IMG/VR virus record: IMGVR_UViG_2778261667_000008
Location: 1 to 44,055 of that record
Strand: one strand, 5' to 3'
Length of the DNA: 44,055 nucleotides
Source: a virus
Taxonomy: Duplodnaviria > Heunggongvirae > Uroviricota > Caudoviricetes
A program made the translations under genes and the position numbers. The notes beneath the pieces were generated by a model that made no database searches, was not told the origin of the DNA, and was given only the letters and a program-made list of their open reading frames with translations. This document shows, piece by piece, positions 17,749 to 42,322 of this stretch. Within the stretch, counting starts at the first letter, position 1; every line of letters begins with the position of its first letter.

Positions 17749-18640
17749 TTGTCACCCCCATTGATATGCAGGGTGTCTTCTTCCTGTATTTTTCGTGAAG
17801 GATTTTTACTGCAGCGTTGTTCCAGGTGACCTGATGGTGAATGCGTTTATGGCTGGCACCCATCAGTGAGATTTTTACGCACGACGGCGAATACATGACG
17901 GAGTAAAAACTTTTAACGTAGGTTCCGGAATCCAGATACAGCTCGGTCATTCCGCCGCTGTTTTTCTGCGTCTGTTTCTGCCCTAACTGGACAGCACCGA
18001 TCGTCATAAACAATTCACCACAGCGACCGAGATTCGTGTACGTATTCACATCCTCGTTAATGCGCCCCATGAATGAGAACGGTCGATCAACCGAACAGAT
18101 AAAGCTGTTCATTGCCTTGCGTTTCACCCACGAAGCATGGCCGCCATTGTCACCAAGAAAATCCCCGCCCTGCGACATAGCGATGGAAAGCGCGGGTATT
18201 GATTCGTAATACGCCAGCATTTCAGAAAGGATCGCATCCAGTTTCCTTATCGGGAAATAGGCCTGGTCATAGTTGCGATCCACCCGAAACTGGAACTCGT
18301 GATAATCATCATCGAGCTGAATGAAGTATTTACACCCGACCAGTTTTGCCAGGTCGAAACAGGCATTACGGGCGTAAAAAATTGAGCGGCGGTCACCAAA
18401 ATTATCGGCTTCGTCAAAACGACTGGCAATATCGGCTTTGGAAAATACCAGCACCTGTTCACCAAATTCAGCCATGTACTGATGCCGTGTCTTATCTTCA
18501 TCATCAACAACGATAAAAATTTTCCCGGTATAGCCAGCACGACGCAACGTCCGGTAAGTCAGAACTTTGTCCGGTCGCCCGTGAGTCAGAATAAAGGCGC
18601 AAAAATCATCACGCATATTCCTCCTCCTCCTCCCCGCCAT
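17684..18640 (-). CDS. Hypothetical 318-aa protein (possible nucleotide-sugar-transferase-like fold; function unknown)
   Basis: ATG at 18640 with GGAG SD; acidic motifs FIVVDDEDK and IQLDDDYHEF; follows the ParB-like gene and precedes the terminase genes. Confidence 0.5.
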   Translation of the reverse strand: MAGRRRRNMRDDFCAFILTHGRPDKVLTYRTLRRAGYTGKIFIVVDDEDKTRHQYMAEFGEQVLVFSKADIASRFDEADNFGDRRSIFYARNACFDLAKLVGCKYFIQLDDDYHEFQFRVDRNYDQAYFPIRKLDAILSEMLAYYESIPALSIAMSQGGDFLGDNGGHASWVKRKAMNSFICSVDRPFSFMGRINEDVNTYTNLGRCGELFMTIGAVQLGQKQTQKNSGGMTELYLDSGTYVKSFYSVMYSPSCVKISLMGASHKRIHHQVTWNNAAVKILHEKYRKKTPCISMGVTNDSVFESRVSGSVPDDCTTNR

Positions 18641-19403
18641 GCATGATCTCCACCATGCGCTGCGTCATTCGGACAAATCCATTTTCAATAGCCTGCTGAT
18701 AATCAATGATCACCAGCGCCGACTCCTCGAAAAGGCACTGAATTTCAGCGGGGGCATGAGCGTAATAGTCCGCAATTCTGCTGAAATTAAACACTGTGTG
18801 ACGTTCTGCCGCACACAGGAGGAATTTCTCAATATCAGGATCAAGGGACGCCGAACGTATCCGGCTGATCAGCTCCTGAGTTTTCGTATCGTCGTACAGT
18901 TCACTGATATCCGGTTTACCGCCCGACGGCTCATAAACAGGCGTATCAATTTTCGTCGTATACGGCTCCTCCTCATTTCCTGTACCGGGCAAAACATCCG
19001 TCAACAGTTCATCAATTTCTGTCGGGATGAAGCCTGTCAGGGAGACATCAAAATCAGCATTGATTAGGTCCGACAGCTCCATCCGCAACAGATCTTCATC
19101 CCAGCCAGCATTCATCGGCAGGCGATTATCTGCCAGGCGGTACGCCTTTTTCTGCTCATCCGTCAGGCCAGACAGAACAATGACCGGAACAGAATCCATT
19201 TTGAGCATTTCAGCCGCCATAACACGACCGTGACCCGCAATAATTTCGCCCTTTTCGTCAATCAGCACCGGATTAGTCCAGCCGAATTGCTTAATACTTT
19301 CTACCAGTTGTGCCACCTGCTCAGTACTGTGCGTCCTGGCGTTGTGCGCATACGGTGACAATTCTTGTAATGGGCGATAGACTATCTTTAATTTCTCGCT
19401 CAT
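18609..19403 (-). CDS. ynaK: ParB-like nuclease domain protein
   Basis: 264 aa; N-terminal ParB/Srx-type segment (IDEKGEIIAGHGRVMAAEM...); acidic C-terminus; adjacent to trkG as ynaK is in K-12 Rac. Confidence 0.6.
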   Translation of the reverse strand: MSEKLKIVYRPLQELSPYAHNARTHSTEQVAQLVESIKQFGWTNPVLIDEKGEIIAGHGRVMAAEMLKMDSVPVIVLSGLTDEQKKAYRLADNRLPMNAGWDEDLLRMELSDLINADFDVSLTGFIPTEIDELLTDVLPGTGNEEEPYTTKIDTPVYEPSGGKPDISELYDDTKTQELISRIRSASLDPDIEKFLLCAAERHTVFNFSRIADYYAHAPAEIQCLFEESALVIIDYQQAIENGFVRMTQRMVEIMHGGEEEEEYA

Positions 19404-19540
19404 ACAGCCTTGCTTTATGAATAAAACGCACCCCAGCAGCCAGTGCTACTGGGGGCGGAGGTGTTGCTGGTAAAGTTAGGTATTGGATCAATGAGTGAGT
19501 CAACATAATATTAAACTCACAATTATAAATCAGCCATATA

Positions 19541-20998
19541 TTAGGAGCGCCAAAAAAAACCTGAAAACAATATAATAACAGGATAAATTTCAAGGCGACC
19601 AAGAATCATAGCTATGCACATTAAATATTTTGCAATGTCATTAAGCACTCCGAATGACGATGCAGTAGCCCCAAAACCTAATCCCATATTATTAATACAT
19701 GCAGCCACTGTTGCAAATGATGTAAGAAAATCATATCCCATACCATTTAACACCAGTATAAAAAACACCGTGAAGAGAGTATAAAGAAAAAAGAAACTCC
19801 ATACAGACCTCATTACACGATCTGTAACTATCTTCCCTCCTACATTTACACTCAACAACGCTCTGGGATGAGAAAGTTGATTTATCTCGTGTTTGCTTTG
19901 TTTGAAAAGTATAAGAAATCGAAGTGACTTAATTCCACCACAGGTTGAACCGATACATCCCCCAAAGAAACTTGACAACAGCAAAAACACTATCGTGTGC
20001 GTGGGCCAGTTTGCATAATCCTGCGTAGCTAAACCATTATCAGTGAGCATGGAGCTGGCAAGAAAAAACGAATGAATAAAACTTCCATGCAAGTCATACA
20101 TACCTATATGCCAGACCTGGAAAGAGGTAACAATGATCACCCCTAAGGCTATTAATAGAAAGAAACGAAGTTCAATATCTCTGATTAAAGGTTTTATCGT
20201 TTTTCTGCTAATAACAATATACCAAAGAGTGAAGTTGAAAGCCGATAGCAGGGAAAAAGAACCAGCCACCAGCTCAACCAAATAGTTATTAAAATATCCG
20301 ATACTCTCGCTATGAGTTGAGAAACCACCAAGCGAAACTGTGGAAATCCCGTGACAAATAGCATCAAACAAAGGCATTCCTGCAAGTCTATAACAGACAA
20401 TACAAGCAATACCTAATAAAGAATAAGTTATCCACAGTGTCCGTGACGTATCGGCCAGGCGGGGAGTGAGTTTGTCATCCTTAAATGGCCCCGGCATTTC
20501 TGACTGATAAAGCTTTGCACCACCAATACCCAATAATGGCAATACTGCAACCGCCAGAACAATAACTCCTAAACCACCTATAAAATTTAACTGTGACCGA
20601 TAGTACAAATATGCCCGAGGTAATGAACTAACATCATCAATTACAGTTGCTCCTGTTGTTGTTATTCCAGAAACCCCTTCAAACAGAGCATCAATGAACG
20701 TTAAATTAAGTTCTGAGTCAATCCATAAAGGGAATGCACTAATAACAGAAAACAAAATCCAAAACATTACAATTATAATAAACCCATCACGGGTACGTAA
20801 TTGAATGCCAGATTTCTTAGTTGTATACCACGCTCCGCCACCAATGCAAAAAAATATAACGAAAGTTATAAAGAAAACGAACAGGCTTTTTTCTTTATAA
20901 AACAATGCTACAACCATTGGTGGCAACATTGAAAGACTATAGAGCCAAACCAGGAACCCACACATATGAGTAACAACTCTTACATGAGATGTATTCAT
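19541..20998 (-). CDS. trkG: TrkH/TrkG-family potassium uptake membrane protein
   Basis: Polytopic membrane protein; sequence from MNTSHVRVVTHMCGFLVWLYSLSM... matches my recollection of K-12 TrkG; first ATG at 20998 (the track start at 21016 is TTG); AT-rich gene. Confidence 0.9.
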   Translation of the reverse strand: MNTSHVRVVTHMCGFLVWLYSLSMLPPMVVALFYKEKSLFVFFITFVIFFCIGGGAWYTTKKSGIQLRTRDGFIIIVMFWILFSVISAFPLWIDSELNLTFIDALFEGVSGITTTGATVIDDVSSLPRAYLYYRSQLNFIGGLGVIVLAVAVLPLLGIGGAKLYQSEMPGPFKDDKLTPRLADTSRTLWITYSLLGIACIVCYRLAGMPLFDAICHGISTVSLGGFSTHSESIGYFNNYLVELVAGSFSLLSAFNFTLWYIVISRKTIKPLIRDIELRFFLLIALGVIIVTSFQVWHIGMYDLHGSFIHSFFLASSMLTDNGLATQDYANWPTHTIVFLLLSSFFGGCIGSTCGGIKSLRFLILFKQSKHEINQLSHPRALLSVNVGGKIVTDRVMRSVWSFFFLYTLFTVFFILVLNGMGYDFLTSFATVAACINNMGLGFGATASSFGVLNDIAKYLMCIAMILGRLEIYPVIILFSGFFWRS

Positions 20999-21135
20999 AT
21001 CTAAATATTCTTTCAATTATAACCACCTTGCTGCAATATTATGATTATACTGTATAAAATTTAACTCCTCTTAGATTTTACTTCACTGTTCCTTATGAAA
21101 CAATCATCAAAATGAATCATATTGTAGTTAAGATT

Positions 21136-21615
21136 TTACTTTAAACACTGTTCGGTTATGTATTGCTGAGCACCTTCAAGTTGGGCCTGCATCATTACCA
21201 GTCGTTCCCGGAGGGTGAAATAATCCCGTTCAGCGGTGTCTGCCAGTCTGGGGGAGACTGCATTATCCACGCTGGAGGTGGCGGTGGCTTCACGCACTGA
21301 CTGACAGACTGCTTTGATGCGCAACCGACGACGACCAGCGGCAACATCATCACGCAGAGCATCATTTTCAGCTTTCGCATCAGCTAACTCCTTCAGGTAT
21401 TTTGCATCGAGTGCAGCAACATCACGCTGGCGTATCTGCATGTCAGTAATGATTGCGGTCGCCTGGTTGAGTTTTTCCGTCACATTATCGCGTTGCGCTT
21501 TGTAGGTAATGGCATTATCACGGTAATGATTAACAGCCCATGACAGGCAGACGATGATGCAGATAACCAGAGCATAAATAATCACGGCAACTCTGCTCAC
21601 TGCTCTATCCCCCAA
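21136..21615 (-). CDS. rzpR: Rz-type i-spanin
   Basis: 159 aa, N-terminal TM segment, coiled-coil periplasmic domain; overlaps the endolysin 3' end and contains the embedded Rz1 frame. Confidence 0.75.
21195..21380 (-). CDS. rzoR: Rz1-type o-spanin lipoprotein (embedded in Rz in the +1 frame)
   Basis: 61 aa; lipobox LVVVGC, proline-rich PPPPPAW; matches my recollection of RzoR. Confidence 0.75.
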
Positions 21616-22130
21616 CAGGCTAATGCGCTCTCCTGATCACGACGAATAACCTGACCGTAACAGTTATTTGAACGAAGGCGGCAATCGCGCCCCCTGTCCT
21701 TAATCCACCAGCGAATCGCCTCGCAGGCACCTTTACGATCACCTGCATTCAGCCGCTTATAAAATGTCGACGGAAAACACTTAGCGGGGCCAATGTTATA
21801 GGGACAAAATGACGCGATACCCGCTTTTTGTGGTTCGGTCAGTGTTACTTTAATATTGCGATCCACCCATGCCAGCGCCTTATCACGCTCAATGGCATTA
21901 ACCTGATCGCATTTTTCCTTCGTCAGTGTCATGCCCGGAATAACAGGTTTACCATCTACTATCGTGGCACCGCGACAGATGGTCCATATGCCGGAACCAT
22001 CGCGGTATGCCGTAGTGTGGTTACCCTCTTTTTCATCCAGAAACTGGTCAAGTATCTCAGGAGCAGATGCGCCTGCTCCAATCAGCGCCAGAACGGCCGC
22101 TGACAGGCCGTATTTGGTTTTTGCGTTCAT
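21597..22130 (-). CDS. SAR-type endolysin (phage lysozyme, T4-lysozyme fold)
   Basis: 177 aa; N-terminal Gly/Ala-rich signal-anchor-release segment ([21 protein letters not shown]); phage-21 R-like. Confidence 0.8.
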
Positions 22131-22235
22131 GGATATTTATCAGGATTTATCGGTTTCTGAACCCTGGATATGTTTATCTGCCCCGGCCTGTTGAATCAGG
22201 CGGGGAAAAGGTAAATACAATCAAGAGGATTATTT

Positions 22236-22508
22236 ATGGACAATAACACCATTTCTCTACAGGAGTTGCTCGACTGCATTTCCAGGCTTCGGGATGATGT
22301 AAATGCCCTCACTGTTGCATTTTCATATCTGGCCTTATCAATTCCCAGAGAACAAATGCAACCAACACTGGCATCGCTCCTGCTTGAATCACGCAACCCC
22401 AAATGGTCCCAGGAACAACAAAATTCTTTTAAGTGGCTGGCGACATTACTGGAAGAAAAATATGCTGGTAAAATTACCATTTCGGTGGAGTCTTCAGAAA
22501 ATCAGTAA
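22236..22508 (+). CDS. Hypothetical 90-aa protein encoded antisense inside the lysis cassette
   Basis: ATG at 22236 with AAGAGG SD 7 nt upstream; its 3' end overlaps the 3' end of the 114-aa minus-strand gene by 35 nt. Confidence 0.4.
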   Translation: MDNNTISLQELLDCISRLRDDVNALTVAFSYLALSIPREQMQPTLASLLLESRNPKWSQEQQNSFKWLATLLEEKYAGKITISVESSENQ

Positions 22509-22818
22509 TTCTTCCTGGTAGCTTTCCTTTGTAGGTTATCCACACATTCTGCGCCTCTAAAATTACGGGGCGCTTTTCCGGCGACTGCTCATCCCCTTCA
22601 CATAACCCGGCAGCAACATCCAGGAAGACCTGTCTGATGCTCCTTCTGGCTGCAGCCTCATAAAACTCCAGCGCAGCACCTTCAACACGGTCCAGCGAGA
22701 TGTCCAGGTCAAAAATTTCACCGTCAAAGCGTTTTTTGTCTTGTAATGCTACAGTTACCGCAACTTTATTCTCAAAATTGCGGATCCCTTTCACAATCAG
22801 TTCATAGTCTTGGGTCAT
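22474..22818 (-). CDS. Hypothetical 114-aa protein translationally coupled to the holin gene
   Basis: ATG at 22818 preceded by GAGAGGAGAG SD, 4 nt after the holin stop; no family recognised. Confidence 0.55.
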   Translation of the reverse strand: MTQDYELIVKGIRNFENKVAVTVALQDKKRFDGEIFDLDISLDRVEGAALEFYEAAARRSIRQVFLDVAAGLCEGDEQSPEKRPVILEAQNVWITYKGKLPGRITDFLKTPPKW

Positions 22819-22822
22819 TATA

Positions 22823-23038
22823 TTACTCTCCTCTCGCAGCCTTTCTTCTGTCTTCTCTGATTTTGAAGTACAGATTTGTCAGATAAGTCAAAAAGCCCAG
22901 AACCAGACTTCCCAGCACACCAATTGCAGCCCACTGTGACGAACTGACCTGATCCAGCCACTGTAAAAACCAGTATCCAGCACTGCCTGCGGAGGTGCCG
23001 TAGGCAATGCCCGTTGTTAACTTGTCCATGGATTTCAT
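22823..23038 (-). CDS. Class II holin (phage 21 S / pinholin type) with dual-start motif
   Basis: 71 aa starting MKSMDK (Met1 and Met4 starts at 23038 and 23029), two TM segments, charged C-terminus; GGAGG SD. Confidence 0.85.
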
Positions 23039-23254
23039 AGCCTCACCTCCGAGAATTCGGATGGTGCTAAACGTAGGGTCCAGGCTCTCAGATTTACTAA
23101 CAAGAAGTCAGAGATGTTATCCGTAGCCTGACAATGAAAAAGCCCTGGTACATGCAAGGGCCTGATGAAGTACCAGATTAAGAATCTGGCGGCATAACCT
23201 CGCACTTGATATCGTTACATCGCCAAAAGTAACAACTATCAATGGAGAAAATGA

Positions 23255-23767
23255 ATGGAACTATTTTTGGTTGATCGCCGAGGAATATACTCAACTGGCG
23301 ATATTGTTACACCAAAGCGATTCTCCGATATAAGTCCTGTCGAAATGTCATCTCTGGTAGACAAACTTTTTCCGTGCGGGCTTGCACCACATGGCGAGGG
23401 ATACCTTATTAACAATGCGGCAAAAAATTATAATAAAAACGAATTCATCGACTGGGGGTTAGAGTTTTACCGAAGAGGAGTTTACCCGCAAAAACCTTCT
23501 CGCTATACGTCACTCTTCGCATGGGGTAACCTGGAGGAGGCTAAACATTTTCGACTTACAGACGGGAAACCATCAGATAAAATCTTCATAATACAAACAG
23601 ATAGTTATCATCGCGGAGATATGTCATTATTAAGAAATGATACATCAGTACTGGAATTCACCTACAGAATGGAACTTTACTGGGCAGGTAAAACCTTTAA
23701 CCCTGATCCAGTCTGGGAATACATTTGTCCGCTACCAGTAACTATCGGTGAACAAGTCCTTGCTTAA
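23255..23767 (+). CDS. Hypothetical 170-aa protein (moron between Q-like gene and lysis cassette)
   Basis: ATG at 23255 with GGAG SD; AT-rich; antisense to the late-operon direction; no family recognised. Confidence 0.55.
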   Translation: MELFLVDRRGIYSTGDIVTPKRFSDISPVEMSSLVDKLFPCGLAPHGEGYLINNAAKNYNKNEFIDWGLEFYRRGVYPQKPSRYTSLFAWGNLEEAKHFRLTDGKPSDKIFIIQTDSYHRGDMSLLRNDTSVLEFTYRMELYWAGKTFNPDPVWEYICPLPVTIGEQVLA

Positions 23768-24021
23768 TCCCCTTCATCCCAATAAAGACCTTTCGCGACA
23801 CAATGGGGGCGGTAAGGATAGCAATAACTTGCTCTGACGTTACCAACCAGCGTACCACTTTCTTTGAATGCCTTATCTCCGTTCCTGAGCTGTGATAAGG
23901 CCTTTTCAAGTTCAGCTATCGCGACAGCCACGTCTTCGCTTTCTACATACAGTGAAAAACCTTTAATGGGTGAACTCATGGTAAGTTGGCTCATAGATAT
24001 TTGATGATGGTGTGAGTGCAT
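23764..24021 (-). CDS. Hypothetical 85-aa protein
   Basis: Track ORF 23764..24066; the best start is the ATG at 24021 (MHSHHHQISM...) preceded by GGGAGA; its stop overlaps the stop of the convergent 170-aa gene. Confidence 0.4.
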   Translation of the reverse strand: MHSHHHQISMSQLTMSSPIKGFSLYVESEDVAVAIAELEKALSQLRNGDKAFKESGTLVGNVRASYCYPYRPHCVAKGLYWDEGD

Positions 24022-24410
24022 AAATAGTCTCCCAGTGAAAGAAAATTCGAGTTGTGCTGTTACCATATCAAGGATGCTACTTATTTCTATATGAAAACAA
24101 TAATAATCATTTAATATGCATAATTATAATTAGCCATCAAGCATTCAAGAAACCATCAAGATATTGATATAAATCACCACAAAACCAATATCGCCTCATA
24201 AAATACCTACGATTCTTTGTCTGTCGGAATCTTTTGTAAATCCTTGTTCTTCTCACCATGAATTTTCACGGGCTCCTCTTCCGGGGAGCTATTTTTTATC
24301 GTAAATAACCACTCATTACAGATGAATTGACCAAAATCAATATCCGTCACAGACATAGAGCAATAGAATTAATAACGTACGCGGTTACTTATATACTTCC
24401 TTTATTCACA

Positions 24411-24438
24411 AGCGACTCTTTAACGGGTCGCTTTTTTT
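24411..24438 (+). terminator. Intrinsic terminator-like hairpin
   Basis: AGCGAC-TCTTTAACGG-GTCGCT followed by TTTTTTT. Confidence 0.5.
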
Positions 24439-24566
24439 CGGACTATCACCGACACAATGTCAAAAAAAAGATCTGCATCACAAAAAAACTTATAAAAAAA
24501 TCACAAAATCCAAAACTCCACTACATAAACACTAATAAATATTGCTTCACATATTTTCATACTAGT

Positions 24567-24588
24567 GCCCTCGCAAGAGGGCTTTTTT
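24567..24588 (+). terminator. Intrinsic terminator-like hairpin
   Basis: GCCCTC-GCAA-GAGGGC followed by TTTTTT. Confidence 0.55.
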
Positions 24589-24728
24589 ATCTGGATGAAA
24601 AACAATCAACCATTAATAATGACATAGTAATATTGACTAAGGTCAAGGAAAAACAAATCATGACACCTAAAGATATAAGAGTTTTTCTGGAGGCGAATTT
24701 TAAAATGCATTAGATTTTACGGCTCTTT

Positions 24729-24755
24729 CACGGGCCGTTTTTTTGCCTGAAATTA
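24729..24755 (+). terminator. Intrinsic terminator-like hairpin
   Basis: ACGGC-TCTTTCACGG-GCCGT followed by TTTTTTT; loop nearly identical to the hairpin at 24411. Confidence 0.5.
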
Positions 24756-24864
24756 TGCCAGAAGCCGTGCTGCATCATCTCACCAACATCAACGTCTCCT
24801 CAGTCCTGAATTAAGACTACGTGGTGATTTTTAGCCTAAAATCCCTGCCAAATACTTTCTATAT

Positions 24865-24890
24865 AAACAAAAAACCGCCCGTCAAGGCGG
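24865..24890 (-). terminator. Intrinsic terminator downstream of the Q-like gene (second of two)
   Basis: Minus-strand CCGCC-TTGACG-GGCGG followed by TTTTTTGTTT. Confidence 0.6.
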
Positions 24891-25155
24891 TAAAAAGATG
24901 GTTAGCTAAAGAGGTCATTATTATTATGATCTGAGGCGTCGGGTGCCTCCCGAAGTATATCAGCTCCTGACTAATACACTGTGGCTTCCCTCCCGCTAAA
25001 CAGTTATACCTTGCCACCCCCGCCCTGGGGAACACCTCAAGATCCTTAACAGATTAAAATACAGCATTAATAATATAAGTGATCTACATCACATTATTTA
25101 GGCATAGAAATATGCATCAAAACAACAACAATATATCAACACTAATATCTCATTT

Positions 25156-25185
25156 CTTACAGATACAAAAAAACCACCTTTAGGT
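25156..25185. terminator. Bidirectional intrinsic terminator just downstream of the Q-like gene (candidate tR')
   Basis: ACCACC-TTTA-GGTGGT flanked by an A-run on one side and a T-run on the other, so it reads as stem plus U-tail on either strand. Confidence 0.6.
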
Positions 25186-25270
25186 GGTTTTTTTGTATCC
25201 GTGGGATTGTTCGCCTCGCGATACAGCTTTGCGAAGCATAGCGAAATTGAAGCAGTTTATACGTAAGAAA

Positions 25271-25933
25271 TCAAGCCATTTTCTCAGCAAATGATTCACG
25301 CATGGGAATATATAGGACATACTCAGCAACAGCTAACCAATTAGCAATCCGTTTTTCGCATGTGCTAAAACACCACTCTGGGTGTGCATCATGTAGCAAT
25401 TCAGCCATTTTACGCTTAGTCATCCCCCGCCCTTCATAGCGTTGCCGGAGAATGCAAATCAATCCTGGATGCTCTGCCAGCACCTCACTTATGACTCGAT
25501 CAATACATAACGCCTCTGCATCAGTACAATGCGCCAGCCAGCTCTTTTGCTTGCCGTTGATCATCTCTCTCAAAAACGCTTCCAGCTCAGCTTTCTCTAT
25601 TCCCGCTTTTTTCATTCTGCGCAGGGCTTCATTGATGGCTGTTTTCGTCAATTTTTGGGATGCCAACAACTGATTGAACATATTTCCTGACCTGCCACCG
25701 CCAATATACGACCAGCGCCCCCACATACGCAGTTTGCCCTGAATCCAGACACTTTCCAGCGTGGCGAGACGAAGGTGTTCTCCGCTTTTTCCTGTATTCG
25801 TTGGGTAAATCACAAATATCCCTCCTTTCTCCAGATTTCTTGTGTGCGAAAAACACCTTCTGCATGCATCAGGCGTAATTCTTCTTTGGTGTAATCGCTG
25901 GTTTTTACCCGCCCGTCGATTAGATCGTGGCAT
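25271..25933 (-). CDS. Putative late-gene antiterminator (Q-like by position)
   Basis: Last gene before two tandem terminators and about 2.2 kb upstream of the lysis cassette; Cys/His-containing. The track start at 25933 overlaps the upstream gene by 124 nt; alternative ATGs at 25726 and 25681 would give a 151- or 137-aa product. Family not recognised by eye. Confidence 0.45.
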   Translation of the reverse strand: MPRSNRRAGKNQRLHQRRITPDACRRCFSHTRNLEKGGIFVIYPTNTGKSGEHLRLATLESVWIQGKLRMWGRWSYIGGGRSGNMFNQLLASQKLTKTAINEALRRMKKAGIEKAELEAFLREMINGKQKSWLAHCTDAEALCIDRVISEVLAEHPGLICILRQRYEGRGMTKRKMAELLHDAHPEWCFSTCEKRIANWLAVAEYVLYIPMRESFAEKMA

Positions 25934-27168: not shown

Positions 27169-27324
27169 TTACTCCTCAGGTTCGTAAGCTGTGAAGACAG
27201 CGACCTCCGTCTGACCGGTTCGGATTCGCACCTCGCAGAGGTCTTTCCTCGTTACCAGTGCCGTCACTATGACGGTTAAACAGATGACAATCAGTGCGAC
27301 TAACATCGCCTTTTGCTGCTTCAT
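27169..27324 (-). CDS. hokD: Hok/Gef-family type I toxin
   Basis: MKQQKAMLVALIVICLTVIVTALVTRKDLCEVRIRTGQTEVAVFTAYEPEE is near-identical to my recollection of HokD (RelF); AAGGAGAAG SD; the track ORF extends 19 codons upstream in frame; perfect 9-bp stem-loop (27138..27159) in the 3' region. Confidence 0.8.
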   Translation of the reverse strand: MKQQKAMLVALIVICLTVIVTALVTRKDLCEVRIRTGQTEVAVFTAYEPEE

Positions 27325-27955
27325 AGCCTGCTTCTCCTTGCCTTCCGGCGCGTAAGAGGCTAACCTACATGTGCAAAGCATGAAATTGGCCTCAGATTAA
27401 TGTTAAGCGTCTTGCCGGACGCGTAATGTTATCTGGGGCTTTTCTCTATCTGCCGTTGGTGTTCATGCCCGAGGCAGATAGCCTCAAGCACCCGCAGCAA
27501 TTCTACTTAACCCCCGTCACCTCGCCAATATAAAATCAATCAGAAAGGCGATCCATAAGAACAACAGCAAGACAATAAATTGCCATTACAGCCGCAATAG
27601 CTAGCGCACATTTGAGAACCAGCACGACAACCTCCTGTATTGGGCGTACACCAGTCCTGATAAATATGAGGATGTCTCGTCAGTGATTCAATGCAACTAT
27701 TGGGTATAGTTTCTGTGATTTTGTTCTGTAGAAATGGAACACAACAACCAGTCACCATCCGCTCTTCTTTAAATGCGCTAAGTCAGACACAAGCCAACAT
27801 TTTAGTTGGCTTTGAGCGTTCTGGAGATGCGACATTGCTAACAGCCTTTTGAATGAACTAATCGGGGGCTAGTCATAACGGGCATAGCAGTCTCCAAGTA
27901 AGCAAGACTTTGCCATACAGAATGGAGCTAAGTTATTCATCAAATCTCCTTAAAT

Positions 27956-28933
27956 TCATAAAGTTAAATGCGGCCCTAAATACGCCACATATATCCGCTG
28001 ATTTACTGCGTCAGCATAAAAATGTAGGCGGTAACCGTCAGGTAGTTTTACATGATTCTCGCAATAGACCTGCCGTCCATCATCTAACCAAAATATGCGC
28101 TCTTTCTTCTTTTTGGGGGCATTATTTACACTGTCCGATTCACCGCTAACTTCAGCAGCCAAACCCAAATCTCTTAAATATTCATGACGGTACTCTACAT
28201 ACTCACCTGAACGCCATTTCTCACTAAACGATTCCAACACATTTAGCGCATCTCGTGCCTTGAACAAGACATTTTGCCTAGCAGACCAACCTTGTAGACT
28301 TGTACCTATTTGATTTGACAACAAAGTGAGATGAGGAAACAAATCTGCTCTTTTCAGCCAGATATCCTTAGCAGTACTTAACAACGTATTACGATGTTGT
28401 TTGAGTTCATCTCCATGCACATCCAAGCTCGCAGAATTACTCAGATTTAAAATCGTTTCATCCCTTTGTTCTGGTATTGCATCAAGCTCGAAAACCCATA
28501 CTTTAAAATGGCTATTTGTCCAAGTAGCTAAAGCCGTAAAACTAGCAAGAAAAGTTTTAAAATAAAACGCTGCTAATAGCACCGCTTTACCTGTATCTTC
28601 CCCTGGCAAGCCAACTTCTAATACATCACCTAAAGTTTCAATATCCACGGTTTCAAAGAGAGGCTGTTTCGTTTCAAGAGACTTTAGAAATCGACACCAA
28701 TCCGCAAGTTCTGCAACTTTGCTCGCAGAGGCAAGCCAATTGCGCACAAAATATCCGTTAGCCAGCTCCAATCCCATTAGCGACTTGTCTTGATCTTCAT
28801 CGATGAGCAAAATTTTCAGCCCAGCAGTTCGGCAGACCTTAAGAACAGTAAAGAAAGCCAATAGTCCTTCATCTGCATCCTCTTTGCTAGCAAATGGCAA
28901 AGAATGATGGTTCAACACAATTCCATTACTCAT
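27956..28933 (-). CDS. Hypothetical 325-aa protein, third gene of the DUF262/ATPase operon
   Basis: ATG overlaps the stop of the upstream ATPase gene (ATGA); AT-rich; no domain recognised by eye. Confidence 0.7.
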   Translation of the reverse strand: MSNGIVLNHHSLPFASKEDADEGLLAFFTVLKVCRTAGLKILLIDEDQDKSLMGLELANGYFVRNWLASASKVAELADWCRFLKSLETKQPLFETVDIETLGDVLEVGLPGEDTGKAVLLAAFYFKTFLASFTALATWTNSHFKVWVFELDAIPEQRDETILNLSNSASLDVHGDELKQHRNTLLSTAKDIWLKRADLFPHLTLLSNQIGTSLQGWSARQNVLFKARDALNVLESFSEKWRSGEYVEYRHEYLRDLGLAAEVSGESDSVNNAPKKKKERIFWLDDGRQVYCENHVKLPDGYRLHFYADAVNQRIYVAYLGPHLTL

Positions 28934-30039
28934 AACAGATGATCCAACTCCTTATCCCATTGGTCAAAGAAGCCTTCCGGCCAACAGTCTATTCGTCCCT
29001 CATCATCAATATTGGGGTACATGACTTCTGAGGCGTGAATGGAGTTATGAACATCTCGCTGTAAGAAAAAGACTTTGACATCGTCAGCTGCAACCACTTT
29101 CTGCTTCACCGCAACCCGTATACCGTTGAGAAAATGATCAGAATGAGATTCAACGATTAATTGCACGCCATTATTCGCAGCAATGGAGCACAATTTACCC
29201 ATCAAGGATTGCCCAGCGGGATGCAAGTGTGATTCTGGGTTTTCAATAATCAGCAAATCACCTTTTGCCGCACTTAGTATACTGGTTACGACAGGTAACA
29301 CATAACTTAATCCAAACCCCACATTCTGTGGTTTAAAGTCTTCGGTGGTGTCTTTCCCTTGGTTAAAAGAGTAACTAAGACTCACCGAATTAAACTGAGG
29401 CTGCGCTACTGCTTTAATTTTTAACCCTGGCGTAATATCCGACATCCATGCTTCAATATTAGAAAGCAAAGTCCCTGAAACAGCCTTTTGATGGCGTAAC
29501 GCTTCTATTTCCAGGTCTTTAGCGCCATTAACCGCGATAAAATGAACTGCAAATTCGCCATGATGACCAAGTGATTTTAAATCACGGATATGAAACTCAG
29601 ACAACTGGTGATGGCTTTGTGGGCCTAACCTATCGGCACATAAATACTGAAAATTAGAGTTAAATAAGCTTAATAATTCTGAATCACCGTCAATACCAGA
29701 TTTACGCAGCGGCAGCAGATCTGAGTCATGTTGATAATCAAACTCAAACCGTGTTGGCTGTTCTTTCTCGAGCCATTTAATGGTAAAAATAATCTCTTCT
29801 TGTTCACTAAAACTAGAGAGCGCGTCTTTACCCGTACCGATATTGACATAATCACCATTTAACAGCAAACCCTTAGTTTTAAGGGTATTGCGTTCATAAG
29901 ACTGCCTTAAAAGCAATAAACTTTGCACAAGCGTTGATTTTCCCATGCCATTAAGGCCTGAGAACAGATTCAGATTACCCAGTGGAAAACTGGCATTTAA
30001 CAAGGTTTTAAAGTTTTGAATATTAATAAACTCAATCAT
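28930..30039 (-). CDS. AAA_21/ABC-type ATPase (OLD/AriA/PtuA-like ATPase architecture, no nuclease domain evident)
   Basis: Walker A GLNGMGKST near the N-terminus; LLIIENPESHLHP (DEPExxLHP-type Walker B/D-loop signature); C-terminal ...CWPEGFFDQW; start overlaps the upstream gene's stop by 8 nt. Confidence 0.8.
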   Translation of the reverse strand: MIEFINIQNFKTLLNASFPLGNLNLFSGLNGMGKSTLVQSLLLLRQSYERNTLKTKGLLLNGDYVNIGTGKDALSSFSEQEEIIFTIKWLEKEQPTRFEFDYQHDSDLLPLRKSGIDGDSELLSLFNSNFQYLCADRLGPQSHHQLSEFHIRDLKSLGHHGEFAVHFIAVNGAKDLEIEALRHQKAVSGTLLSNIEAWMSDITPGLKIKAVAQPQFNSVSLSYSFNQGKDTTEDFKPQNVGFGLSYVLPVVTSILSAAKGDLLIIENPESHLHPAGQSLMGKLCSIAANNGVQLIVESHSDHFLNGIRVAVKQKVVAADDVKVFFLQRDVHNSIHASEVMYPNIDDEGRIDCWPEGFFDQWDKELDHLL

Positions 30040-31159
30040 TAAGCATCTCTTTAATCAAAGCATTGACTTTTTCATACCGTATTTCCACATGCTCTTTTCG
30101 CTGAGTGGAGTAGCTAATAACATTAATAAATTCAGCATCTTCCAATAACGTCTGCACCTTTTTTTGAAACTTTTTTTGATTATAAACCAAGCGGTTAAAC
30201 TCGTTTTCAGTTAATTTCACCAACATAACCATCCAGACTTCAAATAGTGTTGCATTTTTTGACCGTCTTCTTGATGCAGGGTTTTTTTCAAAACCCTTTT
30301 CTCCTAACAGTTGGTAACAGCGCTCTATTGCAGTTGAATACTTAGCTTTAAACTCTGCACGGTAGGCATCATCACCTTTTTTGATATCTTCCATGGCTTT
30401 ATCTAAAAACGAAGAAATTTCTTTTTTGTTTTTAGGGTCTAAATAATCAAAGCGATAGAACGCCCAGAATCGCAATACCAGTTCCTGATCCTTCATACGT
30501 TTGGAAAGGTCACCTAGCATGGCTTTCGAGCATGCTGAATTGGCTAACTCTTCGAGCAATTCTCTGTCTCTTGGCTTAGCGAGCGCATTACGGATCTCTT
30601 GATTATTTAGAGTTAAGCCACCTGTATTGATCCGGCGAAACACCGAATACTTAACGTCCTCAGGCGTACCCGGCTTAATCATGTACACAGTAACAGGACA
30701 TTCTTCAATACGGCGTTGATATTGACGATGTAATTTATCGAAGGTTTTACCATTAAGGTCTGTTAAGAACTCCAGTCCATTGAGACGAAGCTTTTTATCT
30801 AACACAAACTTGCGAATCGTAGATAACCGCTGCAAGCCATCCACAATTAGCCAATTATTTTCATCGGACGCATCGAAGTAGAAAGCAGGTAATGGGAACC
30901 GAATCAAAATTGATTCGATTAATCGGCTCATCTTGCGGTTATCCCATAACTCCGCATGGCGCTGAAAATCGGTATTCATGTCGATCTCATTGTGCTGAAT
31001 TCGCTTAATCAAGGCATCCAACGACTTCGGTTCAACGACGATATCAATATCAGTCGGGTTGAACGGGTGCATCACCTCATCAAGCAGTTCCGGCTCTTCC
31101 TCTTCCGCACCTGGCGCAACCAACTCTTCATCAAGCTCGGTTTCTTGATAATCAACCAT
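30032..31159 (-). CDS. DUF262-like (ParB/Srx-fold, GmrSD N-domain-like) protein
   Basis: 375 aa; FQR...W...IVDGLQRLSTI matches the DGQQR signature region of DUF262; acidic N-terminal tail; ATG at 31159 with AAGGGGAAG SD. Confidence 0.7.
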   Translation of the reverse strand: MVDYQETELDEELVAPGAEEEEPELLDEVMHPFNPTDIDIVVEPKSLDALIKRIQHNEIDMNTDFQRHAELWDNRKMSRLIESILIRFPLPAFYFDASDENNWLIVDGLQRLSTIRKFVLDKKLRLNGLEFLTDLNGKTFDKLHRQYQRRIEECPVTVYMIKPGTPEDVKYSVFRRINTGGLTLNNQEIRNALAKPRDRELLEELANSACSKAMLGDLSKRMKDQELVLRFWAFYRFDYLDPKNKKEISSFLDKAMEDIKKGDDAYRAEFKAKYSTAIERCYQLLGEKGFEKNPASRRRSKNATLFEVWMVMLVKLTENEFNRLVYNQKKFQKKVQTLLEDAEFINVISYSTQRKEHVEIRYEKVNALIKEMLND

Positions 31160-31342
31160 GTTCTTCCCCTTTTATTAATCGTGTCTTACCTGTAAGCAAC
31201 TCTTGTATCATACCTTGTTTGATTTGGCGGATTCTACCTAGCGGCTACCGCTTTTGGCACAAAACAGACAATCACGCTAGCTCTGCTCTGTCCGTGCCAT
31301 GAAAATGGCAATTTATATCTGAGCTAATGCTCTTTAATCTCG

Positions 31343-37907: not shown

Positions 37908-40900
37908 ATGAGCACAAAACCACTCTTCCTGTTACGGAAAGCGAAAAAATCATCCGGTGAACCTGACGTCGTCCTGTGGGCAAGCAACGATTTTGAATCG
38001 ACCTGTGCCACTCTGGACTACCTGATCGTTAAGTCAGGTAAAAAACTGAGCAGCTATTTTAAAGCTGTTGCCACGAATTTTCCTGTCGTTAATGACCTGC
38101 CCGCTGAAGGTGAGATCGATTTTACCTGGAGTGAACGCTATCAACTCAGCAAAGACTCCATGACATGGGAACTAAAACCGGGAGCAGCACCAGACAACGC
38201 TCACTATCAAGGCAATACCAACGTCAACGGCGAAGACATGACTGAGATTGAGGAGAATATGCTACTCCCAATTTCTGGCCAGGAACTGCCCATTCGTTGG
38301 CTTGCTCAACACGGCAGCGAAAAACCGGTAACGCACGTTTCACGCGACGGACTCCAGGCATTACACATTGCTCGGGCTGAAGAACTACCGGCTGTTACTG
38401 CCCTGGCTGTTTCCCACAAAACCAGCCTGCTCGACCCGCTGGAAATTCGCGAACTCCACAAACTGGTTCGTGACACTGACAAAGTTTTCCCTAATCCTGG
38501 TAATTCAAACCTGGGACTGATAACTGCTTTTTTCGAAGCATACCTGAACGCTGACTACACCGATCGAGGACTGCTGACAAAAGAGTGGATGAAGGGTAAT
38601 CGTGTTTCACACATCACTCGCACGGCTTCCGGTGCTAATGCTGGCGGCGGAAACCTCACCGATCGCGGCGAAGGTTTCGTACACGATCTGACGTCACTGG
38701 CGCGCGACGTAGCCACTGGCGTACTGGCCCGTTCAATGGATCTGGACATCTATAACCTTCATCCGGCACACGCTAAACGCATTGAGGAAATTATCGCTGA
38801 AAATAAACCGCCCTTTTCTGTTTTCCGCGACAAATTCATCACCATGCCTGGCGGGCTGGATTATTCCCGCGCCATCGTGGTTGCGTCCGTAAAAGAAGCA
38901 CCAATTGGGATCGAGGTCATCCCCGCGCACGTCACTGAATATCTGAACAAAGTACTGACTGAAACCGATCATGCCAACCCTGATCCGGAAATCGTGGATA
39001 TTGCCTGCGGTCGCTCCTCTGCCCCGATGCCGCAGCGAGTAACAGAAGAAGGAAAACAGGATGATGAAGAAAAACCGCAACCATCTGGAACAACGGCAGT
39101 TGAACAGGGAGAGGCTGAAACAATGGAACCGGACGCAACTGAACATCATCAGGACACGCAGCCGCTGGATGCTCAGTCACAGGTAAATTCTGTTGATGCG
39201 AAATATCAGGAACTGCGGGCAGAACTCCATGAAGCCCGGAAAAACATTCCATCAAAAAATCCTGTCGATGCCGATAAATTGCTTGCTGCATCACGTGGTG
39301 AATTTGTTGACGGAATTAGCGACCCGAACGATCCGAAATGGGTAAAGGGGATCCAGACTCGCGACTCTGTGTACCAGAACCAGCCAGAAACGAAACAAAA
39401 CACGCCAGAAACTGTAAAAACCAGCCCGGATGTGAAACAACCTGAGCCAGTAGTGCAACAGAAACCGGAAATAGTCTGCAATGCCTGCGGTCAGACTGGC
39501 GGGGATAACTGCCCTGACTGTGGTGCGGTGATGGGCGACGCAACATACCAGGAAACATTCGATGAAGAGAATCAGGTTGAAGCTAAGGAAAATGATCCGG
39601 AGGAAATGGAAGGCGCTGAACATCCGCACAAGGAGAACGCTAGCAACCATCCGCATCACGATTGCAGTGATGAAACTGGTGAAGCGTCAGCTCATGTAGC
39701 AACTGAAATCATGTGGCCGTCATATTTCGAGCCTGGCCGCTATGAAAACCTCCCGAACGAGGTTTATCACTCCGCCAACGGAATAAGCAGCACAATGCTG
39801 AAGGATGCCCGCATCAGTCTGATGTATTACCACGGGCGGCACATTGCCGGAACTATTCCGAACGAGGAAAGTGATGCATTGCTGCGTGGGCGGATCATTC
39901 ACAGCTATGTTCTGGAAACGGATAAATTCGCTGATGAATATGCCATTCCGGTACCGGTTCCTGAATATGTGGTTACTACTTCTAACGAACTGATCACCAT
40001 CATTAAAAAACACAATGCCAGTCTGCCATCACTGATGACACCAGAGCAGATGAAAGAGTGGATCGAAAGCTACAACAGCACTCTTATACAGCCACTGTCG
40101 GTAAGCGCTGGGGCCGAAGAAACAGGCATCCTTTACGGTTCGCTTCCGGAGGAATTTCGGCGTATTCCTGAGGGGGAAAAACACACAGCATCAGCAATGA
40201 AAGCCTGTATTAAAGAATACAACGCAAGCCTCCCTCCTCTGCTGAAAACCAGTGGAACACGGGAGCAGCTTCTGGAGCAAATTGAAACTGTAGATCCAGA
40301 ACTGGCAAAAAAAGAACGTGCTAAATCGTTGCCTTACAACATCAGTGGCACAAAAGAGCAATTAACCGAAATCGCCCGGAAAATTCGCCCGGAACTGGTA
40401 ACACTGGAGGACTGGCAAAAACGCCAGCAAGAAGAAAATGCAGGAAAAACGTTTATCAGTCCAGATATGTATGAACAGGCAAAAAATATTCACGCGGCAC
40501 TGCAAAACAATACTGACGCGGCAAGACTACTCAACCACCCGGATCGCAAATCTGAAATCAGCTATTTCGGGTTTGATGAAGAAACCGGGCTGGAAATCAG
40601 AGTCCGCCCTGATATCGAAATCCGACTGCCATACGAAAGCATCTGCGCCGACGTGAAATCAGTAAGCCTCGGTTATGTGCGGCAAGAACGACTAAAAGAT
40701 CGCTTACACCGTGAAATTATTGAACGTGATTATCACCTGAGCGCCGCAATGTACTGCGATGTGGCAAACCTGGACAAATTTTTCTGGATCTTCGTCAACA
40801 AAGATGCTGGCTATCACTGGGTGGCTGTCGTGGAAGCCTCGCAGGAACTCCTGGAACTTGGTCGACAGGAATATCGCCGGACGCTACGACAGATAAACGA

Positions 40901-41000
40901 AGCGCTGGAGACAAACAACTGGCCAGCACCGATTACCGAAAGTTATACCGACGAATTAAACGACTTTGATCTTCGTCGTCTTGAAGCACTGAGCATCTGA
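37908..41000 (+). CDS. recE: Exodeoxyribonuclease VIII (RecE), full-length 1030-aa form
   Basis: N-terminus [46 protein letters not shown]... matches my recollection of RecE; internal Cys cluster [16 protein letters not shown]; nuclease-type C-terminal third. Confidence 0.85.
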
Positions 41001-41011
41001 GGAAGGACACA

Positions 41012-42064
41012 ATGAACGAATTAACTCAACAAGAAAATATTAACTCTAATGTTGCGGTTTTCAGCCCTCAGTCTCTGGCTGCAATTCAGACGTTTTCTCA
41101 GGTAATGGCTTCCGGCATGGCTACTGTACCGGAACACCTCCGAGGAAATCCATCAGACTGCATGGCCATCACCATGCAGGCGATGCAGTGGCAAATGAAC
41201 CCTTACGCAGTAGCTCAGAAAACTTTCGTTGTGAATGGTGTGCTCGGATATGAAGCGCAACTGGTTAATGCCGTAATCAGTACTCGTGGGCCGCTAACCG
41301 GGCGTATTGAATATGACTGGTTCGGGCCGTGGGAAAAAATTATCGGGAAATTTGAAATCAGGAAGAACGACAAAGGGAAAGAATATCGTGTACCTGGCTG
41401 GAAGCTGGCCGATGAAAACGGGATCGGAGTTCGCGTCCAGGCAACACTACGCGGAGAGAGCAAACCACGCGTACTGGAGTTACTTCTGGCGCAGGCCAGA
41501 ACACGTAACTCAACGTTATGGGCCGATGATCCTCGTCAGCAGCTTGCCTATCTGGCACTGAAACGCTGGGCGCGCCTTTATTGCCCTGAAGTGATTCTTG
41601 GAGTGTACACCCGGGACGAACTGGACGAACCACAGGAAAAAATCATTAATCCGGTTCAGGAACATAAAAACACATCCGCCTGCCGTGCGGAACGTGAAAC
41701 AACAATTATTGAGCAGGATGCAGGGGAAAACTGGATCAGTGCTTTCCGTGAACGTATTGAGCAGGCACAAAGCACCGGAGAAACAACAGCACTTCGGCAG
41801 GAAGTGGAAGAGCATAAAAATACACTTGGCGTTCTCTATACGGAACTTAAAGGAAAAGTGGTTCAGCGTCATCACCGTCTCAATGCTATTGCCCGTATTG
41901 AGAAGATGATAAATGAGCTGACTTCATCAGGTGATCCGGAAGCAGAACAAAAATTTACTGCTCTGGAAAATGCGTTGAATGCTGCACGACCACATCTGGG
42001 AGAATTATATGAGGCGTATAAAACGACACTGACAGATATGAAACCAGAATATATCGGCTCCTGA
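41012..42064 (+). CDS. Single-strand annealing protein partner of RecE (Red-beta-like rather than RecT-like by my reading)
   Basis: 350 aa immediately after recE; the N-terminal half (NPYAVAQKTFVVNGVLGYEAQ..., ...LWADDPRQQLAYLALKRWARLYCPEV) loosely resembles lambda Bet and does not resemble my recollection of K-12 RecT. Confidence 0.5.
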   Translation: MNELTQQENINSNVAVFSPQSLAAIQTFSQVMASGMATVPEHLRGNPSDCMAITMQAMQWQMNPYAVAQKTFVVNGVLGYEAQLVNAVISTRGPLTGRIEYDWFGPWEKIIGKFEIRKNDKGKEYRVPGWKLADENGIGVRVQATLRGESKPRVLELLLAQARTRNSTLWADDPRQQLAYLALKRWARLYCPEVILGVYTRDELDEPQEKIINPVQEHKNTSACRAERETTIIEQDAGENWISAFRERIEQAQSTGETTALRQEVEEHKNTLGVLYTELKGKVVQRHHRLNAIARIEKMINELTSSGDPEAEQKFTALENALNAARPHLGELYEAYKTTLTDMKPEYIGS

Positions 42065-42127
42065 TATTTACTATGGCGGCGTAGCCTCACCGCCATAACA
42101 AAACTTTATTTTATGAGAGAAAATACA

Positions 42128-42322
42128 ATGCGGTATGAAAAAGTCAAACCATGTCCATTTTGTGGTTGTTCATCAGTAACGGTGAAAGCCATCTCAGGAT
42201 ATTACCGAGCGAAGTGTAACGGATGCGAATCCCGAACCGGTTATGGTGGAAGTGAAAAAGAAGCACTCGAAAGATGGAATAAACGAACCACTGGAAATAA
42301 TAATGGAGGTGTTCATGTATAA
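42128..42322 (+). CDS. ralR: Restriction alleviation protein RalR (Lar)
   Basis: 64 aa from the ATG at 42128, MRYEKVKPCPFCGC..., zinc-ribbon Cys pairs; matches my recollection of RalR. Confidence 0.8.
   Translation: MRYEKVKPCPFCGCSSVTVKAISGYYRAKCNGCESRTGYGGSEKEALERWNKRTTGNNNGGVHV

Follow-up and report, generated by a model that had tools for sequence, protein, structure and literature searches.

Three adjacent minus-strand genes in the 44,055-nt stretch of viral DNA analysed here (hereafter the window) very probably constitute a complete, prophage-borne Menshen defence cassette, NsnA-NsnB-NsnC. The cassette belongs to Type I Menshen and forms a moron of a lambdoid prophage of the Rac type, which is integrated at ttcA. 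The initial annotation had interpreted it as an NTP-dependent sensor/effector module for phage defence, carried as cargo that occupies a moron slot of the prophage, and this interpretation is supported, as are the domain calls behind it (DUF262, OLD-type ATPase and DUF3696). By contrast, the accompanying proposal of a possibly undescribed system is refuted, because profile searches match all three proteins, over their full lengths, to a named system of the same architecture. The defence cassette is thus real but not new: Menshen, an anti-phage system, was named already in 2022 (Millman 2022) and was later dissected by Li et al. (2025; PMC12065111). Phage resistance has been demonstrated only for the system of Solibacillus silvestris.

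Identity of the three-gene cassette

The PADLOC models NsnA, NsnB and NsnC match genes 1–3 end to end and in identical order (Table 1). The alignments cover residues 16-374 of gene 1 (model positions 22-384 of 385), residues 1-369 of gene 2 and residues 1-324 of gene 3 (model positions 1-304 of 305), and every PADLOC match to gene 3 is to an NsnC model. The three ORFs, which had been delimited exactly in the initial annotation, are adjacent on one strand and joined by overlapping codons, with an 8-nt stop/start overlap at the nsnA/nsnB junction (ATGATTGA) and a 4-nt overlap, ATGA, at the nsnB/nsnC junction; the Shine-Dalgarno sequence noted ahead of the first gene and the elevated AT content of the block (GC 0.408 versus 0.469 in the rest of the window) are likewise confirmed. 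Between lineages, dN/dS equals 0.07 for NsnA, 0.03 for NsnB and 0.13 for NsnC, indicating purifying selection. HMM E-values of 1e-90 to 1e-123 combined with dN/dS of 0.03-0.13 rule out chance ORFs.

The Menshen archetype, from S. silvestris StLB046 (Type I, with an inPIN + BECR NsnC), agrees with this cassette in all three genes and their order, with an NsnA consisting of DUF262 and a C-terminal domain, an NsnB with the EN Walker B, GxG and DUF3696 tail, and an NsnC that joins a dead PIN to a YafQ-like BECR RNase domain in which the His/Arg/His set is conserved. The cassette described here differs from the archetype in its gammaproteobacterial lineage, its residence in a Rac-type prophage, the QRx4W form of motif I and the hsdS remnant upstream of nsnA.

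Table 1. Features of the Menshen cassette and its borders (window coordinates)
Feature	Position	Strand	Basis or remark
nsnA, predicted sensor, 375 aa	30032..31159	-	PADLOC NsnA PDLC03877, E = 3.5e-123
nsnA Shine-Dalgarno	31163-31171	-	AAGGGGAAG 5 nt before first ATG; inside hsdS remnant
DUF262 (ParB/Srx-fold NTPase) domain, NsnA residues 60-193	30581..30982	-	Pfam PF03235
nsnB, OLD-class ABC-type ATPase, predicted transducer, 369 aa	28930..30039	-	PADLOC NsnB PDLC03878, E = 8.9e-122
C-terminal DUF3696 helix (tail), NsnB residues 317-368	28936..29091	-	Pfam PF12476, 3.9e-19
nsnC, predicted effector, 325 aa	27956..28933	-	PADLOC NsnC PDLC03879, E = 1.1e-89
N-terminal PIN-like domain without catalytic acidic residues (inPIN), NsnC ~residues 1-165	28439..28933	-
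C-terminal BECR-fold (YafQ/RelE/YoeB-like) RNase domain, NsnC ~residues 265-325	27959..28141	-
hsdS 3'-end remnant (type I R-M specificity gene), 29 codons	31152..31238	-	translation GRIRQIKQGMIQELLTGKTRLIKGEEHG up to the stop; stop codons upstream
Promoter-like site GTGCCA, 18-nt spacer, TAGAAT	31231..31260	-	consensus scan, 9/12 matches
Cassette-side 3' flank, absent from most related prophages	27819..27955	-	homology limits

The three proteins and their proposed interplay

NsnA comprises an acidic N-terminal tail (~residues 1-55), the ParB-like DUF262 domain and a C-terminal domain, over which the NsnA model extends. The assignment of gene 1 to DUF262 stands (Pfam GmrSD_N/DUF262, 1.4e-21; 78 bits versus a cut-off of 33.2), and the motif on which it was based, DGLQR, is found at residue 107, along with FRRIN at 174 and motif I, FQRHAELW, a QRx4W that is one residue longer than QRxxxW, a minor deviation. 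Given that the model spans ~180 residues past DUF262, the C-terminal ParB-associated DNA-binding (ParBDB) domain is predicted to be present as well. An N-terminal DUF262 NTPase sensor with the DGxQR and FxxxN motifs is shared with the DUF262-DUF1524 enzymes GmrSD, BrxU and SspE, the middle DNA-binding domain of which has been described as a homologue of the NsnA C-domain. Unlike in these enzymes, however, no DUF1524 is fused to the sensor; an ATPase provides the link to the effector, which is a protein of its own with an RNase fold. No match to the DUF1524 (HNH-like) nuclease was found in any of the three proteins (Pfam, E up to 0.1), and a GmrSD-like enzyme was therefore rejected. PD-T4-2 (Vassallo 2022) and Dazbog are other DUF262 defence systems without DUF1524, and their DUF262 protein is a relative of NsnA. 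Among the PADLOC matches of gene 1, PD-T4-2_A ranks second (E = 5.1e-40) but is ~270 bits weaker than NsnA (135.6 versus 409.7 bits), and the neighbouring genes are nsnB and nsnC, so that PD-T4-2 was rejected, too.

Gene 2 had been described as an AAA_21/OLD-type ATPase without a nuclease, which agrees with the Pfam matches to AAA_15, AAA_21 and DUF3696 and with the failure of the same search to find a TOPRIM or HNH domain. The Walker A motif (GLNGMGKS) lies at residue 28 and the Walker B motif (LLIIEN) at 262, where it continues as LLIIEN-PESHLHP, both as quoted in the initial annotation; the EN dyad, in place of DE, is NsnB-specific, and GxG, in place of SGG, is represented by GFG at 241. 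The ATPase family is common to the OLD-class ABC ATPase defence systems Gabija GajA, PARIS AriA-AriB, Septu PtuA-PtuB and P2 Old. Accordingly, PADLOC also matches NsnB to AriA (7.8e-26), GajA (7.7e-13) and Old (1.8e-09), and its sole sequence relative in the PDB is the ATPase part of the OLD nuclease 6p74, but GajA, Old and 6p74 align only to the ATPase segments of NsnB. In contrast to GajA/Old-type systems, NsnB lacks TOPRIM, the partner effector is PIN-like + BECR, and there is an extra DUF262 sensor; an OLD/Gabija-like system was rejected given the missing TOPRIM and the termination of NsnB in DUF3696 at residue 368. A further point in common is that published models feature an ATPase oligomer that holds a toxin. 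For Menshen itself, AlphaFold 3 models predict a tetramer of NsnB with NsnC bound at DUF3696, the surface of which clamps the NsnC N-domain (PMC12065111).

The initial annotation recognized no motif in gene 3, and indeed NsnC has no match in Pfam, NCBIfam or PHROGs; sequence and profile searches against the PDB returned chance-level matches only, and 56 NsnC homologues scanned with Pfam showed no consistent family. The structure prediction proposed at that stage was more informative: the AlphaFold2 model (pLDDT 95.3) has the fold and architecture of the published NsnC, including the RNase fold (PMC12065111). Its N-terminal domain is PIN-like and lacks the catalytic D-E-D-D residues (35 such inPIN families have been published), whereas the last ~60-80 residues adopt the BECR fold, carry the conserved H-R-H set and represent the best-conserved part of the protein. 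The C-terminal toxin/nuclease domain of NsnC in Menshen is most often of this kind, BECR with the H-R-H set.

To our knowledge, no mechanism has been demonstrated experimentally for Menshen. Drawing on the literature on Menshen and related systems, we lean, with somewhat better than even confidence, towards a sensor-ATPase-RNase relay. NsnA would recognize incoming phage DNA via the ParB-like DUF262 NTPase domain and the C-terminal DNA-binding domain, and NsnB, as an ABC-ATPase tetramer that holds NsnC by the dead-PIN domain, between paired DUF3696 tails, would change its nucleotide state in response. NsnC would then be set free or activated allosterically, and the YafQ/RelE-like domain would cleave RNA, most likely mRNA, whereupon translation would stop and the infection would be aborted.

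Prophage setting, borders and origin

The cassette occupies a slot between the Ren-like gene and hokD, where sibling prophages carry other cargo. On one side are replication genes (ydaU/ydaV-like, DUF1627 and the Ren-like DUF977) and, on the other, hokD, NinB and a Q-like DUF1133 protein, as expected from the proposed site between the replication genes and the late regulator. Of 5,426 complete E. coli genomes, 17 contain the cassette, E. coli W among them; W is a laboratory and industrial strain, and KO11FL and LY180, which derive from it, carry the cassette as well. In 16 E. coli genomes, the identity is 99.9% or higher. This sparse distribution and the variable-cargo slot led us to reject the possibility that the three genes are ordinary conserved phage genes. 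Megablast of the cassette against 50,697 GenBank phage records produced no match. A sibling prophage in E. coli strain 700462 is 97.7-99.3% identical to the window and differs from it at 21600-25208 and 39694-42108. The trio is horizontally mobile: the gene neighbourhood comparison proposed in the initial annotation uncovered the same arrangement in Pseudomonas, Vibrio and E. coli C10.

The cassette originated inside a type I R-M operon, from which it was evidently lifted, given the 29-codon hsdS remnant upstream of nsnA. The stop codon of the remnant overlaps the nsnA start (ATGGTTGA), and the remnant shares its register with the intact HsdS of E. coli C10, which ends in KTRQIKQSMMQELLTGKTRLIKGEAHG followed by the stop codon. 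In C10, the trio is located between hsdS and hsdR, and the hsdS stop also overlaps the nsnA start; the Pseudomonas copy is preceded by a degenerate hsdS remnant. Homology to the C10 and Vibrio cassettes spans 27947/27950..31186/31237, stopping 6-9 nt past the nsnC stop, and the prophage backbone homology resumes at 31252. nsnC is followed by the 3' flank and then by the hokD/sok killer locus. Backbone matches in other E. coli extend to window position 27818 and, in a few, to 27857; a 397-bp 3' flank was rejected as cassette DNA because it is mostly prophage backbone.

Alternative readings and significance

The transfer from an R-M operon raises the question of expression. It is conceivable, although unlikely, that the cassette is a silent or crippled passenger, excised from hsdS-nsnABC-hsdR with the loss of the promoter or the R-M partner, which would leave the lysogen undefended and confine expression, if any, to prophage induction. 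The hsdS remnant does attest to past co-transcription and translational coupling with the R-M operon, and no convincing promoter was found: the promoter-like site that straddles the junction of the prophage backbone and the cassette carries little weight because the upstream region contains fewer such sites than shuffled sequence (5 versus 9.3). Nor was a terminator-like hairpin with a T-run seen between the cassette and the Ren-like gene. However, the three ORFs are intact with conserved catalytic residues, the cassette is nearly invariant among its E. coli carriers, the Vibrio and Pseudomonas copies likewise lack adjacent R-M genes, and the transplanted S. silvestris system functions without an R-M partner. 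Purifying selection also argues against silence, but it is seen between lineages and is no proof of function in this host.

Two related readings grant the R-M operon a more active role. We consider it rather improbable that this Menshen clade evolved within type I R-M operons (hsdM-hsdS-nsnABC-hsdR, coupled to hsdS) as a PrrC-like second line, set off by the evasion or inhibition of restriction, with the Rac copy and its 29-codon stump representing a naturally uncoupled version. Also improbable is that a type I R-M complex holds members of the clade latent and that they fire once restriction has been disabled by a phage; the trigger would then be the loss of R-M, not phage DNA itself. The coupled arrangement in C10, the remnants retained in the Rac and Pseudomonas copies and the proximity of ~28% of Menshen loci to R-M or BREX systems are compatible with such guarding. 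The prrC gene is similarly placed, hsdM-hsdS-X-hsdR, and its product is also an ABC-ATPase-controlled RNase. Nevertheless, adjacent R-M genes are absent from most copies, this one included, the archetype Menshen protects alone, and the DNA-sensing domain of NsnA would be superfluous.

There is very little to recommend the view of the cassette as an addiction module, a toxin with its regulators that stabilizes the prophage rather than counters phages, even though the effector domain has the fold of the RelE/YafQ toxins of toxin-antitoxin systems and the cassette adjoins the hokD/sok killer locus. Sequence identity to the type II mRNA interferases RelE, YafQ, YoeB and HigB is only 6-17% and, unlike in the ~90 aa stand-alone RelE/YafQ toxins, the BECR domain is part of the 325-aa NsnC, fused to a regulatory domain within a three-gene sensor system, where control would come from NsnB. 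Furthermore, no antitoxin gene or small partner ORF is present beside nsnC, the trio is found, too, at places in the chromosome that offer no element to stabilize, and an anti-phage function has been shown for homologous systems. Finally, practically no probability remains for an undescribed system or for a new variant that falls outside every named system: the generic RefSeq labels (DUF262 protein, AAA ATPase and hypothetical protein) and the lack of family or PDB sequence matches for gene 3 are outweighed by the full-length PADLOC matches, by the NsnC fold, which equals the published one, and by the agreement of the gene order, overlaps and motif variants with Li et al. (2025; PMC12065111).

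As a discovery, the Menshen cassette carries little weight, given that PADLOC or DefenseFinder would label it automatically, Menshen has been catalogued in E. coli genomes before (PMC10121019) and E. coli pan-genome surveys already count it. It has some practical value, being convenient for testing the proposed sensor-ATPase-RNase relay because it occurs naturally in E. coli, is small and belongs to the most frequent type. How a defence module passes out of an R-M operon to become a phage moron is documented by the hsdS stump together with the intact hsdS-nsnABC-hsdR locus of C10, and the Rac copy and its C10 sibling form a natural pair for addressing a functional link between Menshen and type I R-M. 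If the R-M-embedded reading is true, comparison of the two would separate direct sensing of phage DNA from sensing of the state of the R-M complex.

Identity of the three-gene cassette

The initial annotation raised the possibility that the three genes constitute an undescribed defence operon. This is excluded by the matches in the PADLOC profile library, where a single named system, Menshen, covers all three proteins from end to end. For gene 1, the runner-up match, PD-T4-2_A, lies ~270 bits below NsnA. Millman et al. (2022) discovered this system, whose components are NsnA, NsnB and NsnC, and Li et al. (2025; PMC12065111) examined it in detail; all family-specific features given in the latter study are found in the trio. 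NsnA contains the DGxQR (DGLQR at residue 107) and FxxxN motifs, with a motif I, QRHAELW, that exceeds the canonical QRxxxW by one residue. NsnB displays a Walker A motif (GLNGMGKS, residue 28), a Walker B motif with the unusual EN dyad (LLIIEN at residue 262, followed by PESHLHP), GFG at the position where the ABC signature has SGG, and a DUF3696 tail. Because the N-terminus of NsnA consists only of a ~55-residue tail, with no added sensor domain, the cassette belongs to the common Type I Menshen. Residues 1–35 of this tail include 13 D/E and no K/R; the tail could be autoinhibitory or DNA-mimicking. The assignment to Menshen is nearly certain; the defence cassette is genuine and intact, was acquired horizontally, and has the textbook Type I architecture.

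The initial description of the operon holds in its particulars. The coordinates of the three minus-strand ORFs are exact, genes 1 and 2 overlap by 8 nt (ATGATTGA on the coding strand, comprising the end of the former and the start of the latter), ATGA is common to the stop of gene 2 and the start of gene 3, and the ribosome-binding site proposed for the first gene, AAGGGGAAG, is located 5 nt 5' of the nsnA ATG. The cassette is AT-rich, as had been claimed, with a GC content of 0.408 versus 0.469 in the remaining window. All quoted motifs of genes 1 and 2 are present, and Pfam bears out the domain calls, namely, GmrSD_N/DUF262 in gene 1 and a nuclease-free AAA_15/AAA_21 ATPase in gene 2, with a C-terminal DUF3696 and neither TOPRIM nor HNH.

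Features of the cassette and its surroundings (window positions unless stated otherwise)
Feature	Position	Strand	Details
nsnA (gene 1)	30032..31159	-	375 aa; PADLOC NsnA (PDLC03877), E = 3.5e-123, query 16-374, model 22-384 of 385
nsnB (gene 2)	28930..30039	-	369 aa; PADLOC NsnB (PDLC03878), E = 8.9e-122, query 1-369, model 1-343 of 345
nsnC (gene 3)	27956..28933	-	325 aa; PADLOC NsnC (PDLC03879), E = 1.1e-89, query 1-324, model 1-304 of 305
NsnA acidic tail, residues 1-35	31055-31159	-	
hsdS stump	31152..31238	-	29 codons (87 nt)
Interval paired with the hsdS stump	12203-12361 of L002 (C10 locus)		
Promoter-like site	31231-31260		
Ren-like (DUF977)-to-hokD interval	27559-31342		
hokD (mok/hok-type) toxin ORF + sok antisense RNA	27169-27493	-	Rfam RF01794, 111 bits
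RalA antitoxin sRNA (RalR/RalA type I toxin-antitoxin)	42321-42499	-	Rfam RF02694, 225 bits
Q-like DUF1133 antiterminator	25271-25813		
Lowest-GC patch	23255-24713		GC 0.36
trkG-like TrkH potassium transporter	within 18609-21016	-	491 aa; low-GC stretch
recT, strain 700462 prophage	2829-3637 of L003		marked as frameshifted in RefSeq
HK97 gp10 head-tail gene, strain 700462 prophage	32836-33216 of L003		internal stop marked in RefSeq

NsnC, selection and spread

Gene 3, in which no motif had been recognized, indeed has no match in Pfam, and NsnC lacks sequence-detectable relatives in NCBIfam, PHROGs and PDB as well. An exhaustive HMMER search yielded 433 relatives, from which 56 full-length members (21–56% identity) were aligned. 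In this alignment, N8, R279, H294 and R302 are invariant, and E265, S266, K296, Y318, G320 and H322 are at least 95% conserved. No acidic position is invariant within residues 1–165, the best being ~80% D/E, and the end of beta-1 carries an invariant Asn where catalytic PIN domains have Asp; by these residues, the N-terminal PIN-like domain is a dead PIN.

Comparison with the 87%-identical copies of Escherichia coli C10 and Vibrio parahaemolyticus gave dN/dS values of 0.07 for nsnA, 0.03 for nsnB and 0.13 for nsnC; therefore, selection maintains all three genes at the protein level. The fastest-evolving product is NsnC, in agreement with the published family pattern. Trios with identical gene lengths and overlaps are found in Pseudomonas (72% nucleotide identity), in Vibrio, where they adjoin tyrosine-recombinase trios, and on a contig carrying TraC/TraG conjugation genes. 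Most of the near homologues of NsnC belong to aquatic Gammaproteobacteria such as Vibrio, Shewanella and Plesiomonas, consistent with the low GC content of the cassette. Among 5,426 complete E. coli genomes, only 17 have the cassette; in 16 of these, including W, KO11FL and LY180, it is at least 99.9% identical and has the prophage flanks of the window. The RefSeq entry NZ_CP026085.1 (4.83 Mb), labelled E. coli DH5alpha, has the cassette and flank at 99.7–99.9% identity, like W and its derivatives, and its strain label looks doubtful.

Prophage cargo slot and origin of the cassette

The window is a lambdoid prophage of the Rac type, located at ttcA, in which intR, xisR, recET, kilR, sieB, racR and ydaSTUV precede the cassette, and hokD/sok, immediately downstream, NinB, the Q-like DUF1133 protein, lysis genes, trkG and terminase-to-tail genes follow it. 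Backbone homology to cassette-free relatives stops at ~27818 (27857 in a few) and restarts at 31252. The Ren–hokD interval is a variable-cargo hotspot across E. coli prophages, so that the position, proposed initially as a moron or defence slot, proves to be one: siblings carry unrelated cargo there, including QueH, a Sll1717-family P-loop ATPase, and a SMEK-domain protein with a methyltransferase. Further cargo comprises DUF4209, sce7726/beta-family proteins, DUF7167, an alpha/beta hydrolase and a KwaB-like protein. Taking the cargo of this slot as a whole, several genes may have defence functions not yet characterised.

Elsewhere in the prophage, the lowest-GC patch, between the antiterminator and the lysis genes, occupies the classical post-Q moron position. 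Its three ORFs encode 170, 100 and 128 aa, two of them lie on the opposite strand, and none is matched in Pfam or PADLOC. The patch is missing from the strain 700462 prophage, which is near-identical otherwise but is a sibling with a different sequence (97.7–99.3% identical). Given the lesions that RefSeq marks in its recT and in a head-tail gene, the strain 700462 copy may be defective. Adjoining the trkG-like gene is a 264-aa ParB_N protein, the N-terminus of which matches part of PADLOC MTase_II (type II methyltransferase; positions 13–151 of 436), and RalA lies near the integrase end.

The 17th carrier, C10, harbours its copy in a type I restriction-modification (R-M) operon, hsdM-hsdS-nsnABC-hsdR; the island that holds this operon also encodes three tyrosine recombinases. 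In the classical prr locus, prrC has the same placement. In the window, an hsdS stump is located directly 5' of nsnA; it translates to GRIRQIKQGMIQELLTGKTRLIKGEEHG before its stop, which overlaps the nsnA start, and further stops lie upstream. The intact C10 HsdS ends with KTRQIKQSMMQELLTGKTRLIKGEAHG, its stop overlapping the nsnA start likewise, indicating that the prophage cassette was captured from an R-M-embedded Menshen. The sole promoter-like site is weak and spans the insertion junction. That the cassette is now a silent passenger, having lost the promoter or partner of the R-M operon, appears unlikely. A PrrC-like guard of type I R-M is suggested by the hsdS-nsnABC-hsdR layout and by the ~28% of Menshen loci that are associated with R-M or BREX, but is somewhat less probable still, since most copies, like the functional archetype, have no such partner. 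A pure addiction module is highly improbable.

Predicted mechanism and significance

For the cassette as a Menshen defence system, family membership, intact catalytic-type residues, folds, selection and mobility are established. Solibacillus silvestris Menshen defends against T2, T4, T6 and Fado, and loss of its DUF262 gene abolishes defence. DUF262 domains of GmrSD and SspE are NTP-dependent sensors of phage DNA, and AlphaFold 3 models predict a GajA-like NsnB tetramer that clamps the PIN-like domain of NsnC between the DUF3696 tails, resembling PARIS and Septu (PMC12065111). By analogy, NsnA would detect phage DNA, the nucleotide cycle of NsnB would then release or activate NsnC, and the YafQ/RelE-like domain of NsnC would cleave RNA, leading to translation arrest. 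We lean slightly towards this relay being right in outline; the literature yielded no experimental mechanistic work on Menshen.

Given its textbook Type I architecture, the cassette is of a kind already known, and Menshen in E. coli had been catalogued earlier (PMC10121019). The additions are modest: an hsdS stump marking the capture out of an R-M operon, a delineated Ren–hokD cargo slot, and a native E. coli copy, in strain W, usable for mechanistic work on Menshen.
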